A stretch of 64,000 nucleotides of DNA. Origin: Escherichia coli (GTDB taxonomy: Bacteria; Pseudomonadota; Gammaproteobacteria; Enterobacterales; Enterobacteriaceae). Of this stretch, positions 8,250 to 49,073 are shown piece after piece. Where the stretch lies: the NCBI RefSeq assembly GCF_003334355.1, contig NZ_QOWP01000001.1, one strand, 5' to 3'. Every line of letters begins with the position of its first letter. Positions within the stretch are counted from its first letter, which is position 1. A model generated the notes under the pieces. The model did no database searches and had not been told where the DNA came from. It saw only the letters and a list, made by a program, of their open reading frames with translations. The position numbers were made by a program, and so were the translations under genes.

Positions 8250-8729
8250 ATGGAATCGCTCTCAGAGAGAACCTCAACAGGCTACCAGCAAATCCATGAC
8301 GGTATTATTCACCTGGTCGATAGCGCCCGGACGGAAACGGTACGTAGCGTTAACGCGCTGATGACCGCGACATACTGGGAAATTGGCCGACGAATTGTCG
8401 AATTTGAACAAGGTGGCGAGGCCAGGGCTGCGTATGGTGCGCAGCTAATCAAGCGACAATCAAAGGATTTAAGTCTAAGGTATAAGCGTGGGTTCTCTGC
8501 AAAAAACTTACGCCAAATGAGGCTTTTTTACCTCTTTTTTCAACATGTTGAAATTCGCCAGACAGTGTCTGGCGAATTAACACCATTGGGAATTCCGCAG
8601 ACACCATCTGCAGAATTCCCATCGGCAAAGATTTGGCAGACGCTGTCTGCCAAATTGAGAGGCTGTTTGATATTTCCACAGCTTTTGTATTGCATCTCCT
8701 ATTTTCGGTTTGTATATTCATGCAAATAA
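8250..8729 (+). pseudogene. yhcG: Truncated YhcG-like (DUF1016 family) gene; N-terminal domain only
   Basis: The first ~100 aa (…YWEIGRRIVEFEQGG…NLRQMRLFYLFF…IRQTVSGEL) resemble the DUF1016/YhcG N-terminal region as I recall it. After that the reading frame runs through a palindrome array and AT-rich sequence with no nuclease-like C-terminal domain. The intact 159-aa ORF could still be translated. Confidence 0.55.
8552..8653. repeat. Three imperfect palindromes with a CAGAC..GTCTG core, centres about 39 bp apart
   Basis: aattcgccagacagtgtctggcgaatt (8552-8578), gggaattccgcagacaccatctgcagaattccc (8588-8620) and ttggcagacgctgtctgccaa (8633-8653), read directly from the sequence. Confidence 0.7.
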
Positions 8730-8745
8730 ACGAAGGAAAGTTGCC

Positions 8746-9051
8746 ATGATTTACATTGAACAGCTTGAATTAATCCATAAAAGTGGTGATGTGTTGTATC
8801 CAGTAAAAATAACCAGAAAATCATCAGGAAAAACTGCCTTCCACCTTGTTCCATTCGGCTTAAATAAGACTCACGACCTTCTAGAGGTGGAAGATGCTTC
8901 AGAAGCAATTCGGCTGGTGATTGATGAACGTCATTCCATTCGCTGCAGTACACTTACAGCAACTATTACGAATAAAAAGGGCAAGCGAATTAAGCGGACA
9001 GGTATATACAGTATCAAGGGTGTTAACATAAAAGAATACAACGTCAGGTAA
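8746..9051 (+). CDS. Hypothetical small protein (~101 aa), orphan, AT-rich
   Basis: ATG at 8746 is preceded by a GAAGGAAAG Shine-Dalgarno-like sequence about 7 nt upstream. The ORF (in frame with the list entry 8710..9051) ends with a basic tail (KKGKRIKRTG). I recognise no motif. A hairpin follows at 9053-9092. Confidence 0.4.
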   Translation: MIYIEQLELIHKSGDVLYPVKITRKSSGKTAFHLVPFGLNKTHDLLEVEDASEAIRLVIDERHSIRCSTLTATITNKKGKRIKRTGIYSIKGVNIKEYNVR

Positions 9052-9126: not shown

Positions 9127-10459
<1,333 letters not shown>

Positions 10460-10463
<4 letters not shown>

Positions 10464-11149: not shown

Positions 11150-11196
11150 ACATCTTCCCTTAGCGAAAGGCCCGGTACATAGACCGGGCAACAGGA

Positions 11197-30688: not shown

Positions 30689-32149
<1,461 letters not shown>

Positions 32150-32181
32150 TTAGTTACTGCAGTAGAGGATTTTTTACGGCT

Positions 32182-32400
32182 GCCGGATGCGGCGTGAACG
32201 CCCTATCCAGCCTACGGTTATGTTCCGGTTTGTAGGCCTGATAAGACGCACAGCGTCGCATCAGGCAACGGCTGTCGGATGCGGCGTAAACGCCTTATCC
32301 GACCTACGGTTATGTTCCGTTTGTAGGCCTGATAAGACGCACAGCGTCGCATCAGGCAACGGCTGCCGGATGCGGCGTGAACGCCCTATCCGACCTACGG
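32182..32400. repeat. REP/BIME array (repetitive extragenic palindromes) between tldD and yhdP
   Basis: Repeated units gccggatgcggcgtgaacgccctatcc...cctac and gtaggcctgataagacgcacagcgtcgcatcaggca, arranged in about three tandem ~98-bp units. Confidence 0.9.
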
Positions 32401-32472
32401 TTATGTTCTGGCTCGTTGGCCTTTGGCAACGATTATCCTATGAGATTGGGGCAATTACGCGCCCTCGTCAAA

Positions 32473-36340: not shown

Positions 36341-37810
36341 TTACATCATTACGACGTCAAACTGCTCCTGGTTATAGAGCGGTTCAATTTGTACTTTAAC
36401 CTGTTTGCCAACGAAAATTTCCACTTCCGCCAGCGAGTGTGACTCTTCGCCTTTCAAGGCTTCGGCTACTGCCGGAGAAGCATAGACCAGGAAACGGTCG
36501 GAATCGTAAGCATGGTGGACACGAACAATCTCGCGCATGATTTCATAGCATACCGTTTCCACGGTTTTCACCGTTCCGCGACCGTGGCAGGTTGGGCATT
36601 CGTTACACAGTACGTGCTCAATGCTTTCGCGGGTGCGTTTACGCGTCATCTCCACCAGCCCCAGCGCCGAAAAACCATTAACGCTGGTTTTCACCCGGTC
36701 TTTGCTCAACGCCTGCTCCAGCGAGTGCAGCACGCGGCGGCGGTGATCTTCATTATTCATATCGATGAAATCAATAATGATAATCCCGCCCAGATTACGC
36801 AACCGTAACTGGCGAGCGATAGCCTGCGTCGCTTCAATATTGGTATTGAAAATGGTGTCGTCCAGATTGCGATGACCGACAAACGCTCCGGTATTGATGT
36901 CCACGGTGGTCATCGCTTCGGTCTGGTCGATAATCAGATAACCACCGGATTTCAGTTCTACTTTGCGTTCCAGCGCTCGCTGGATTTCGTTTTCGACATC
37001 AAAGAGATCGAAAATCGGCTGGCGTCCGGTGTAATGCTCCAGCTTGCTGGTCATCTCGGGAATGTACTCCGAGGTAAACTCCAGCAATGCTTCGTAAGTC
37101 AGGCGTGAGTCAACGCGAATGCGGTCCAGTTCGGCGTCGGCGAAATCACGCAGAACACGCTGCGCCAGCGCCAGTTCGCCGTACAGCTGATAACGGGTCT
37201 GCGGGCGTTTTTTACGCTCCATAACTTTGGTCCAGACGCGTTTCAGATAAGCGGCATCGGAGGCCAGTTCAGCCTCGCCAACCCCTTCCGCTGCGGTACG
37301 GATGATAAACCCGCCCTGCTCGTCGCAATACTCTGCGACCACTTTTTTCAGGCGTTCACGTTCTGATTCGCTTTCAATACGTTGGGAAACCCCAACGTGA
37401 GAAGCCCCTGGCATAAACACCAGATAGCGAGAAGGCAGCGTGATATCGGTGGTCAGGCGCGCACCTTTAGTGCCAAGCGGATCTTTCACCACCTGCACCA
37501 TCAGATCTTGCCCCTGACGAACCAGTTCCGAGATGTCGCGCACCGTGAATTGCTTTTGTTCTTCACCCGCCACACATTCGGTGTGCGGCATGATGTCAGA
37601 TGCATGAAGAAACGCGGCTTTATCCAGCCCAATATCTACAAAAGCCGCCTGCATACCCGGAAGTACACGACTTACACGACCCTTGTAGATATTGCCTACT
37701 ATTCCGCGTCGCGCCTCACGTTCAATATGAATTTCCTGCAGAATACCGCCATCAATATACGCCACTCGCGTTTCCGAAGGCGTTACGTTTACTAACAATT
37801 CAGCCGTCAT
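36341..37810 (-). CDS. rng: Ribonuclease G
   Basis: Start taken at the ATG 37810-37808 ([22 protein letters not shown]...), S1 domain plus RNase E/G catalytic domain. Confidence 0.93.
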
Positions 37811-38393
37811 GTTTATCCCTTTTCTCACGCAGTGCGTTAAAATTACTTAATAATTCATACGTTTCAACCAGCGGTAAGCCGACTACGGCGTGATAGCTGC
37901 CATTTATCTTCCTGACAAAACAGCCACCCAGCCCCTGAATACCGTATGCACCTGCTTTATCTAACGGTTCACCGCTGGCGACATAGCCCGCGATGTCTTC
38001 GTCTGTTAACGTTCTGAAAGTCACATCGGTGACCACCAGGCAATCGAGAATGTGCTGGCTGTCAGCCAACGCCACTGCCGTCATCACCTGATGGGTCTGA
38101 CCCGATAATTTGCGCAACATCTGCGCCGCATGCTCTGCGTCGCGCGGTTTCTCCAGCACTTCTCCGTTCAGGATAACGATAGTATCCGCACCCAGCACCG
38201 GGAGATCCTGCGCCGTTTGCGCGACACCCGCTTGTGCTTTCTCGCGTGCCAGACGCACAACATACTGCTGCGCGCTCTCCTGCGGCTGACGCTGCTCCTC
38301 AATGCCCGTAACAATACGTTCAAAGGTCACGCCAAGTTGCGCAAGTAACTCCTGACGACGCGGAGAACCGGAAGCTAAATACAGAGAAGTCAT
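37800..38393 (-). CDS. yhdE: Maf-like nucleotide pyrophosphatase (YhdE)
   Basis: 197-aa ORF ([21 protein letters not shown]...). The stop overlaps the rng start. Confidence 0.9.
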
Positions 38394-38401
38394 AGAAACC
38401 T

Positions 38402-39993
<1,592 letters not shown>

Positions 39994-47296: not shown

Positions 47297-47323
47297 AAAA
47301 GGCCGGATTTTCCGGCCTTTTTT
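47297..47323 (+). terminator. Rho-independent terminator downstream of accC
   Basis: aaaaggccggattttccggcctttttt. Confidence 0.8.
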
Positions 47324-47389: not shown

Positions 47390-47632
47390 ATGGACACTCG
47401 TTTTGTTCAGGCCCATAAAGAGGCGCGCTGGGCGCTGGGGCTGACCCTTTTGTATCTGGCAGTTTGGTTAGTAGCCGCTTACTTATCTGGCGTTGCCCCC
47501 GGTTTTACCGGCTTTCCGCGCTGGTTTGAGATGGCCTGCATCCTGACGCCGCTGCTGTTTATTGGACTGTGCTGGGCGATGGTGAAATTTATCTATCGCG
47601 ATATCCCACTGGAGGATGACGATGCAGCTTGA
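47390..47632 (+). CDS. yhdT: Small membrane protein YhdT (DUF997)
   Basis: 80-aa ORF with two transmembrane helices. The stop overlaps the panF start. Confidence 0.85.
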   Translation: MDTRFVQAHKEARWALGLTLLYLAVWLVAAYLSGVAPGFTGFPRWFEMACILTPLLFIGLCWAMVKFIYRDIPLEDDDAA

Positions 47633-49073
47633 AGTAATTCTACCGCTGGTCGCCTATCTGGTGGTGGTGTTCGGTATCTCGGTTTATGCGATGCGTAAAC
47701 GGAGCACCGGCACCTTCCTTAATGAGTATTTCCTCGGCAGCCGCTCTATGGGCGGTATTGTGCTGGCGATGACGCTCACCGCGACCTATATCAGTGCCAG
47801 TTCGTTTATCGGCGGGCCAGGAGCTGCTTATAAATACGGGCTGGGCTGGGTATTGCTGGCGATGATTCAGCTTCCTGCAGTCTGGCTTTCACTCGGTATT
47901 CTCGGCAAGAAGTTTGCGATTCTTGCGCGCCGCTACAATGCAGTGACGCTAAACGATATGCTGTTTGCCCGCTACCAGAGTCGTCTTCTAGTGTGGCTGG
48001 CGAGTTTGAGTTTGCTGGTTGCGTTCGTTGGTGCGATGACCGTGCAGTTTATCGGCGGTGCGCGCCTGCTGGAAACCGCGGCGGGTATTCCTTATGAAAC
48101 CGGGCTGCTGATTTTTGGTATCAGCATTGCGTTATATACCGCCTTTGGTGGCTTTCGCGCCAGCGTGCTGAACGACACCATGCAAGGGCTTGTGATGCTG
48201 ATTGGCACCGTTGTGCTGCTTATTGGCGTGGTACATGCCGCTGGCGGCTTAAGCAACGCAGTACAGACCTTGCAAACCATCGATCCTCAACTGGTTACGC
48301 CACAAGGCGCTGACGATATTCTGTCGCCTGCCTTTATGACGTCGTTCTGGGTACTGGTGTGCTTTGGCGTTATAGGCCTGCCGCATACTGCGGTGCGCTG
48401 TATCTCTTATAAAGACAGCAAAGCAGTACACCGGGGGATCATCATCGGTACGATTGTAGTCGCAATCCTGATGTTCGGTATGCACCTGGCCGGAGCGTTA
48501 GGTCGGGCGGTGATCCCCGATCTCACCGTACCGGATCTGGTGATCCCGACGTTAATGGTAAAAGTGCTGCCACCGTTTGCCGCCGGGATCTTCCTGGCTG
48601 CACCGATGGCTGCGATCATGTCGACAATTAACGCCCAACTGCTGCAAAGTTCCGCTACGATCATTAAAGATCTCTATCTGAATATCCGTCCGGATCAAAT
48701 GCAAAACGAGACGCGTCTGAAGCGGATGTCGGCGGTAATTACGTTAGTTCTCGGCGCGTTGCTGCTGCTTGCCGCCTGGAAGCCGCCAGAAATGATCATC
48801 TGGCTGAATTTGCTGGCCTTCGGTGGGCTGGAAGCCGTTTTCCTGTGGCCGCTGGTGCTGGGTCTTTACTGGGAACGCGCCAACGCCAAAGGCGCGCTAA
48901 GTGCGATGATCGTTGGCGGCGTGCTGTATGCCGTACTCGCGACGCTGAATATTCAGTACCTGGGCTTCCACCCTATCGTGCCCTCGTTACTACTAAGTTT
49001 GCTGGCTTTCCTGGTCGGAAACCGTTTCGGTACATCCGTCCCGCAAGCTACCGTTTTGACTACTGATAAATAA
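47622..49073 (+). CDS. panF: Sodium/pantothenate symporter
   Basis: GGAGG RBS before the ATG at 47622 ([22 protein letters not shown]...), SSS-family transporter. Confidence 0.93.

Follow-up and report, generated by a model that had tools for sequence, protein, structure and literature searches.

The five short stop/start overlaps in this 64,000-nucleotide stretch of Escherichia coli DNA, hereafter the window, are very probably ordinary junctions between neighbouring genes of an operon, from which we infer a contribution of translational coupling. Judged from the sequence, such coupling is plausible for all five gene pairs, nanE/nanK, nanK/nanQ, maf/rng, mreC/mreD and yhdT/panF. Short overlaps of this kind are a textbook feature of bacterial operons and as such already known, and the original prediction was right to call them normal.

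To annotate the window, the RefSeq features of E. coli strains 720632 and PSS-12 were transferred by sequence. Along the window lie, in its first part, yhcC, gltBD, a yhcG fragment, nanQ-K-E-T-A, nanR, dcuC, sspAB, rpsI-rplM, zapE and zapG; in its middle, degQS, mdh, argR, the aae genes, tldD, yhdP, rng, yhdE, mreDCB, csrD and yhdH; and towards its end accBC, yhdT, panF, prmA, dusB-fis, acrS, acrEF and yhdV-Z. The 4-kb stretch around the maf/rng junction has a match in all 5,426 complete E. coli genomes (95-100% identity) and carries the annotated genes yhdP, rng, yhdE, mreD and mreC. Exactly five of the 39 tabulated co-directional neighbour pairs overlap (yhdJ was left unmapped), and gaps of at most 15 nt were counted for 16 of the 39. 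Read directly on the relevant strand, the coordinates of all five junctions coincide with RefSeq gene ends (Table 1).

Table 1. Genes and sequence features at the five junctions (positions in the window; energies are those of the anti-Shine-Dalgarno duplex).
Feature	Position	Strand	Remarks
nanQ (yhcH) CDS, 154 aa	9127..9591	-	ATGA overlap with nanK 9591-9588; -8.2 kcal/mol
nanK CDS, 291 aa	9588..10463	-	ATGA overlap with nanE 10463-10460; -8.4 kcal/mol
nanE CDS, 229 aa	10460..11149	-	ORF list, RefSeq; -5.3 kcal/mol
rng (RNase G) CDS, 489 aa	36341..37810	-	ATG 37810-37808; RefSeq, ATG in 80 of 80 Enterobacterales loci, N-terminal peptide
maf/rng overlap, 11 nt, ATGACGGCTGA	37800..37810	-	maf TGA spans rng codons 3-4 (GCT GAA)
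yhdE (maf) CDS, 197 aa	37800..38393	-	stop TGA 37802-37800; ORF list, RefSeq, published N-terminal peptide
Shine-Dalgarno-like AAAGGGA of rng, within maf 3' end	37816..37822	-	-5.1 kcal/mol; purine-rich block conserved here
Rejected rng start GTG, 6 codons upstream	37826..37828	-	would add MRKGIN; no Shine-Dalgarno (-0.1 kcal/mol)
mreD CDS, 162 aa	38402..38890	-	GTG start 38890-38888; base 38890 shared with mreC stop (TAGTG)
mreC CDS, 367 aa	38890..39993	-	stop TAG 38892-38890; ORF list, RefSeq
GGGAGGG Shine-Dalgarno of mreD, within mreC 3' end	38896..38902	-	-10.8 kcal/mol; G+C-rich, strongly folded context
yhdT (DUF997) CDS, 80 aa	47390..47632	+	stop TGA 47630-47632
GGAGG Shine-Dalgarno of panF	47611..47615	+	6 nt before ATG 47622, 0 nt before rejected ATG 47616
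panF CDS, 483 aa	47622..49073	+	ATG 47622-47624; 11-nt overlap with yhdT 47622-47632

The overlaps predicted between maf and rng (37800-37810) and between yhdT and panF (47622-47632) were each found to be 11 nt long, with sequence and RefSeq in agreement, and those predicted for nanE/nanK (10460-10463) and yhcH/nanK (9588-9591) are both ATGA overlaps of 4 nt. For mreC and mreD, which had been said to abut at 38890, the position is correct, but the genes overlap by one nucleotide (TAGTG), base 38890 lying in both. In three of the pairs, nanE/nanK, nanK/nanQ and mreC/mreD, the start codon has bases in common with the upstream stop codon, which places them in the -4 (NTGA) or -1 (TRRTG) class. 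The two 11-nt overlaps are built differently: their pattern is ATGnnnnnTGA, with the ATG ending 5 nt ahead of the stop codon and no base shared, and they belong to a looser class of short co-directional overlaps. The maf/rng junction reads ...AAAGGGATAAAC ATG ACG GCT GAA... in the rng frame, while the yhdE frame ends ...GGC TGA; the panF junction reads CTGGAGGATGACG ATG CAG CTT GAA, with the panF ATG at 47622.

The starts that define these overlaps had been chosen within longer listed ORFs. We computed the anti-Shine-Dalgarno duplex energy for every in-frame candidate start, and the annotated start was favoured over the longer form in every case: rng ATG, -5.1 versus -0.1 kcal/mol for GTG 37828; panF ATG 47622, -9.3 versus -2.4 kcal/mol for ATG 47616; nanK ATG 10463, -8.4 versus +0.4 kcal/mol for TTG 10502; nanE, -5.3 versus -0.4 kcal/mol for the TTG at 11191; nanT, -7.4 versus -0.1 kcal/mol; and mreB, -4.1 versus -0.4 kcal/mol. 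The mreD GTG (-10.8 kcal/mol) and the nanQ start (-8.2 kcal/mol) have no longer alternative; nanQ begins with three tandem in-frame ATGs (9591, 9588, 9585).

Conservation pointed the same way. A scan of species-representative genomes with Rng gave 80 Enterobacterales loci, from Escherichia to Yersinia, Pectobacterium, Serratia and Sodalis, and the rng ATG was conserved in every one of them. The upstream GTG of rng is part of the maf codons CGT-GAG; at its position 26 of the 80 species have no start codon, a synonymous CGT>CGC change in maf being one cause, and 18 of the 26 lack an upstream start anywhere in the rng frame. In Yersinia and Klebsiella a stop codon closes the rng frame 3-5 codons upstream of the ATG. 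Upstream of nanK, the TTG is missing in Salmonella and Pseudocitrobacter and a GTG is missing in Salmonella, and the upstream ATG 47616 of panF was found solely in E. coli and Salmonella among six genera. Published N-terminomics of E. coli supplied direct evidence for rng: in the portion of Table S1 of the TRAINSPOTTER study available to us (PMC13245402), the Rng (b3247) peptide comprises residues 2-15 of the 489-aa form, beginning at Thr2, its entry is classed as a database start with Ribo-RET and INRI-seq support, no extended Rng proteoform is among the matches listed, and an N-terminal peptide is also given for yhdE. That portion has no entry for panF, nanK, nanE, nanQ or mreD, an absence that carries no weight, as some of these genes are not expressed or code for membrane proteins. 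N-terminal proteomics had been proposed as a check on the chosen starts, and for rng it upheld the choice.

Were the longer ORFs the true genes, with rng starting at GTG 37828, panF at ATG 47616 and nanK at TTG 10502, the overlaps would grow to 29, 17 and 43 nt, respectively. An 'extended form of RNase G' has indeed been over-expressed and used in experiments, according to the literature. The longer frames are also present in the ORF-finder list, but their upstream starts are neither preceded by a Shine-Dalgarno sequence nor conserved, and RefSeq takes the shorter starts. The extended RNase G is presumably an artificial construct bearing six residues from the upstream GTG and not the native protein; Briant et al. 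(2003) reportedly found that, of two potential start sites, translation of RNase G uses the second. Taken with the Rng peptide, Shine-Dalgarno energies, conservation and RefSeq lead us to reject the longer ORFs, which we regard as extremely improbable. All the internal starts preferred originally (rng ATG 37810, panF ATG 47622, nanK ATG 10463) are those of RefSeq.

The argument by which these starts had been defended, namely that the overlaps support them, fared less well than the starts themselves. RefSeq, Shine-Dalgarno strength and conservation all favour the chosen codons, but the overlap as an argument is near-circular, because an overlap is defined by the start already chosen. Start triplets at a spacing of -1, -4, -8 or -11 occur in 20 cases on the 51 annotated stop codons of the window, and 14 of the 20 open ORFs of merely 1-37 aa. 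Since start triplets fall at these spacings by chance so often, the overlap motif alone cannot validate a start codon; on its own it is weak evidence, and conservation is the stronger argument. What does rise above chance is that each of the five triplets begins a long, conserved gene preceded by a Shine-Dalgarno sequence and that the juxtaposition is kept across genera. As a caution for annotation, the overlap of a start triplet with a stop codon is unfit as the sole basis for picking starts, and the deciding evidence lies in Shine-Dalgarno strength, cross-species conservation and N-terminal proteomics. These checks bear out the calls of all five junctions and of the shorter starts, so later work can rely on the gene models concerned; beyond annotation quality the importance of the overlaps is small.

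At each of the five junctions the ribosome-binding site of the downstream gene lies within the 3' end of the upstream gene, whose stop codon ends 1-11 nt beyond the downstream start. In translational coupling, a ribosome finishing the upstream gene would promote initiation on the downstream one. It could do so by re-initiation after termination, with short lateral or backward scanning to the Shine-Dalgarno sequence and start codon, or by melting local mRNA structure while translating the upstream gene, and the two routes may combine. Coupling of this kind would keep the outputs of a gene pair linked; trpE-trpD and trpB-trpA are examples of coupled pairs with stop/start overlaps. A conserved short stop-to-start spacing together with a Shine-Dalgarno sequence inside the upstream gene was found for all five pairs of the window.

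The competing explanation regards the overlaps as neutral consequences of genome compaction, left behind as stop or start codons shift to whichever usable one comes next. Each downstream gene would then initiate independently and de novo at its own Shine-Dalgarno sequence, with no regulatory role for the overlap. Such a sequence does precede every downstream gene. We nevertheless consider neutrality unlikely as an account of the five junctions, with the evidence differing from one junction to the next.

At maf/rng, the 11-nt overlap was present in 70 of the 80 species. In nine of the remaining ten the maf stop precedes the rng ATG by 2-13 nt, with gaps of 2 nt (Klebsiella, Raoultella and Enterobacter sp. 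10-1), 4 nt (Siccibacter), 7 nt (a locus of 'Enterobacter pulveris'), 8 nt (Atlantibacter and a locus labelled Citrobacter freundii) and 13 nt (Sodalis); the tenth, Leclercia adecarboxylata NCTC13032, has a 1-nt deletion that brings maf in frame with rng, giving a fusion that may be real or a homopolymer error. The overlap was thus lost in ten of the 80 species with both maf and rng retained, and the switching between -11 and +2 to +13 in nine lineages is what neutral drift would lead one to expect. Against neutrality, the spacing keeps to a narrow band of at most 13 nt across three families while flanking synonymous sites vary freely. Codon 3 of rng is GCT in 80 of 80 species, codon 2 uses all four ACN codons, and among the 149 four-fold sites of rng whose first two bases are conserved in the 80 species only two are invariant, one of them being the T with which the maf TGA begins; this invariance also speaks against neutrality. 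Since the ten species that lack the overlap retain this T as well, a constraint other than the maf stop may act on it.

Initiation at rng is not obligatorily coupled to maf. The INRI-seq templates comprise just 30 nt upstream of each start, hence 30 nt of maf for rng, and in this purified in-vitro system the rng start was detected; de novo initiation of rng is therefore possible without translation of maf, a point that fits the neutral explanation. In the INRI-seq supplements, solely alternative internal start sites are given for rng and mreD. We further predicted local folding and opening energies for every start in the window (51 genes). The rng initiation region, at 5.1 kcal/mol, was among the lowest of the 51, an openness that likewise agrees with independent initiation.

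The mreD initiation region lay at the other extreme, its opening energy of 15.2 kcal/mol being the second highest of the 51 genes. Across species the median opening energies were 14.8 kcal/mol for mreD, 6.5 kcal/mol for rng and 6.8 kcal/mol for maf, and mreD exceeded rng in 72 of 75 species. In a control with composition-matched shuffled flanks, the median z was 0.07 for mreD, -0.53 for rng and -0.88 for maf, the initiation regions of rng and especially maf being more open than the shuffles. We rejected a conserved hairpin sequestering the Shine-Dalgarno sequence before mreD, as the opening energy equals that of composition-matched shuffles. Structure beyond base composition, as expected for coupling by RNA unfolding, was not seen at mreD against shuffled flanks (median z 0.07); since base composition explains the high opening energy, there is no specific evolved hairpin at this start. 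According to these folding predictions, mreD would be exempt from the selection that normally keeps starts open, in line with a dependence on mreC translation, and a Shine-Dalgarno context that needs about 15 kcal/mol to open would disfavour the unaided initiation that neutrality requires.

The mreC/mreD motif was TAGTG in 56 of 75 species, ATGA in 11 (Yersinia, Pectobacterium, Brenneria, Serratia, Sodalis) and TAAGTG or TGAGTG in six, with two outliers. Through these changes the spacing stayed within -4 to 0 in 73 of the 75 species, and a GGGAGG-type Shine-Dalgarno sequence always preceded mreD. The nanE/nanK junction was ATGA in five of five species; at nanK/nanQ three species have a spacing of -4, whereas Citrobacter koseri has -1 and Pseudocitrobacter -7, so that the nan pairs overall range from -7 to -1. 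That the motifs of nanK/nanQ and mreC/mreD change as well is in keeping with drift.

Experiments on other gene pairs help to weigh the two explanations. Among five native overlapping E. coli pairs, all different from the five in the window, three were strictly coupled, one was coupled to about 60% and bioBF was uncoupled (Huber et al. 2019, PMC6728339). The bioBF pair is thus a precedent for an overlapping yet uncoupled junction, as neutrality would have it, whereas the coupling of four of the five tested pairs tells against it. According to reviews and experiments, enrichment is seen at spacings of -4, -1 and -8, and coupling is most efficient from -4 to +3 and declines as the overlap grows.

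The nan and mreC/mreD junctions resemble the coupled -4/-1 pairs hyfHI, astDB and ydbH/ynbE (PMC6728339) in their motifs, ATGA at nanE/nanK and nanK/nanQ and TAGTG (-1) at mreC/mreD, and in being co-directional, with the Shine-Dalgarno sequence inside the upstream gene and the spacing conserved. They differ from them in that their coupling is predicted, that mreD uses GTG and that its motif is ATGA or TAAGTG in other lineages. The mreD region also resembles cases of coupling by RNA unfolding (PMC12548453) in requiring about 15 kcal/mol to open across 75 species and lying inside the translated mreC; it departs from them in having no specific conserved hairpin beyond what shuffles show, and the initiation regions of rng and maf are open. 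The closest counterparts of the maf/rng and yhdT/panF junctions are somewhat longer overlaps in the -8/-11 frame, at which the terminating ribosome would scan backward and re-initiate (a model reviewed by Brown and Wade 2025, PMC12548453): the first base of the stop comes 8 nt after the start, a Shine-Dalgarno sequence precedes the start, and the frame relation is that of the -8 class. Unlike that class, their spacing of -11 is not among the enriched ones (-4, -1, -8); coupling falls with growing overlap, and the rng start works in vitro without upstream translation.

Coupling, our preferred explanation, is accordingly graded. It is most likely from mreC to mreD, given the -1 spacing, the strong Shine-Dalgarno sequence, the very structured initiation region and a spacing of -4 to 0 in 73 of 75 species. 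It is likely along nanE, nanK and nanQ, with -4 spacings and good Shine-Dalgarno sequences. From maf to rng and from yhdT to panF (-11), where each downstream gene has a Shine-Dalgarno sequence of its own, it is probably partial at most.

The literature treats mreBCD-yhdE-rng as a single operon. A consensus scan of the junctions revealed no promoter-like or terminator-like site, and hence no internal promoter for rng within maf or for panF within yhdT, which is weak evidence either way; the same scan placed a strong terminator upstream of yhdT (47297-47321) and a terminator-like site after rng (36335-36316).

The conserved yhdT-panF module is the sole lead of some biological interest in the window. 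We compared E. coli with contigs of YhdT homologues from Salmonella, Klebsiella, Yersinia ruckeri, Serratia and Affinibrenneria. The gene order accBC-yhdT-panF-prmA, the 11-nt overlap and the panF ATG were conserved in six of six genera, as was the Shine-Dalgarno sequence CTGGAGGA, which encodes a conserved Leu-Glu-Asp of YhdT. PanF codon 3 is CTT, ACT or ATT (L, T or I), and the T of the yhdT TGA is kept throughout the six genera although the PanF residue changes, a further argument against neutral drift. More distant DUF997 proteins (36-49% identity) are encoded in unrelated genomic surroundings, next to metJ or a P-type ATPase, and their genes directly precede a PanF homologue (46-62% identity). 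The two genes overlap by 8 nt in one case and by 4 nt in another, and 43 nt separate them in the third.

These observations bear on another explanation for the yhdT/panF overlap, in which it exists because the two proteins form a unit, YhdT being a small membrane protein that partners the pantothenate symporter, with co-translation from the overlapping frames providing matched and co-localised synthesis. We hold this to be possible but doubtful. A genome-wide genetic interaction screen scored yhdT and panF as synthetic lethal with every pantothenate biosynthesis gene, and no other genes behaved in this way apart from recA and recC (a conjugation artefact). That deletion of yhdT acts like deletion of panF would suit a two-protein unit, as would the conserved order and overlap in six genera and the adjacency to a PanF homologue that distant DUF997 genes retain in unrelated contexts; overlapping pairs are reported often to encode subunits of a complex (PMC10666635). 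However, the authors of the screen ascribe the yhdT effect to disruption of panF through the overlap of the two genes, we found no interaction or transport data in the literature, and conserved adjacency is no proof of physical interaction. NCBIfam, moreover, names the family 'hypothetical protein' alone and gives no function.

A related proposal, put forward only tentatively, is that YhdT may be an obligate partner of PanF: the protein could serve as a small membrane subunit, or yhdT could be a leader gene that must be translated for panF to be expressed. If true, a dependence on YhdT would explain why deletion of yhdT phenocopies deletion of panF in pantothenate auxotrophs. It would also explain why the two genes are kept as a module in distant lineages with unrelated flanking genes, a module whose junction is tight, at -11, -8 or -4, in most of the lineages examined, with a 43-nt gap at one distant locus.

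The spacing between maf (yhdE) and rng, the gene for RNase G, was altered in Leclercia adecarboxylata NCTC13032 (LR590464.1; positions 630-670 of locus L043), where the GGG run directly 5' of the rng ATG carries a 1-nt deletion. As a result, maf is placed in frame with rng and no stop codon intervenes (...SNFNSLREEGII-MTAELLV...), so that a Maf-RNase G fusion ORF is predicted. This ORF could be either a genuine fusion or the product of a homopolymer sequencing error. Within rng itself, the only four-fold degenerate sites that were invariant across 80 species (the Enterobacterales loci L004-L083) were those of codon 3 and codon 375 (ACC).

Upstream in the adjoining genes, the mreD initiation region was unusually hard to open in almost every one of the Enterobacterales loci examined (75 among L004-L083), at a predicted cost of ≈15 kcal/mol. 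This is due to the 3' end of mreC, the G+C-rich part that codes for the variable C-terminal tail of the protein; the opening cost is a compositional effect and not a specific conserved hairpin.

Features of the window discussed in this section
Feature	Position	Strand	Description
gltD-nanQ interval	8250-9051		
nanQ (yhcH) start	9585-9591	minus	three tandem in-frame ATGs (ATGATGATG)
tldD-yhdP intergenic gap	32135-32472		338 nt
mreD initiation region	38850-38960	minus	
Intrinsic-terminator-like hairpin	47297-47321	plus	strong; 11 pairs, then T run
yhdT + panF	47390-49073		compared with loci L084-L088 and L093-L096

The start of nanQ can be placed at any of three ATGs, which would give spacings to the nanK stop of -4, -1 or +2 (negative values denote overlap in nt). 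Judged from the sequence, the spacing to the Shine-Dalgarno site favours the first; public gene calls for NanQ in E. coli also include proteins 152-155 aa long. According to RefSeq annotation of a near-identical strain, the only features between gltD and nanQ are a DUF1016 (yhcG-like) pseudogene, itself truncated, and a transposase ORF of 101 aa. In K-12 this site is occupied by gltF and the yhcA-yhcF genes, and the window strain therefore appears to have undergone a deletion or rearrangement between gltD and nanQ. The tldD-yhdP gap differs in length from that of strains 720632 and PSS-12 (429 nt), and the 91-nt indel may represent a repetitive extragenic element.

Finally, panF is paired with yhdT, which encodes a small membrane protein (DUF997), in a two-gene module that is kept in distant lineages despite differing flanking genes, with junction spacings of -11, -8, -4 or +43 across the window and the compared loci. 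In a published screen, deletion of yhdT, like that of panF, was synthetic lethal with every gene of pantothenate biosynthesis (PMC5120140). The terminator-like hairpin lies directly 3' of accC and 69 nt 5' of yhdT; this suggests that yhdT-panF-prmA largely constitutes a transcription unit of its own, apart from accBC.
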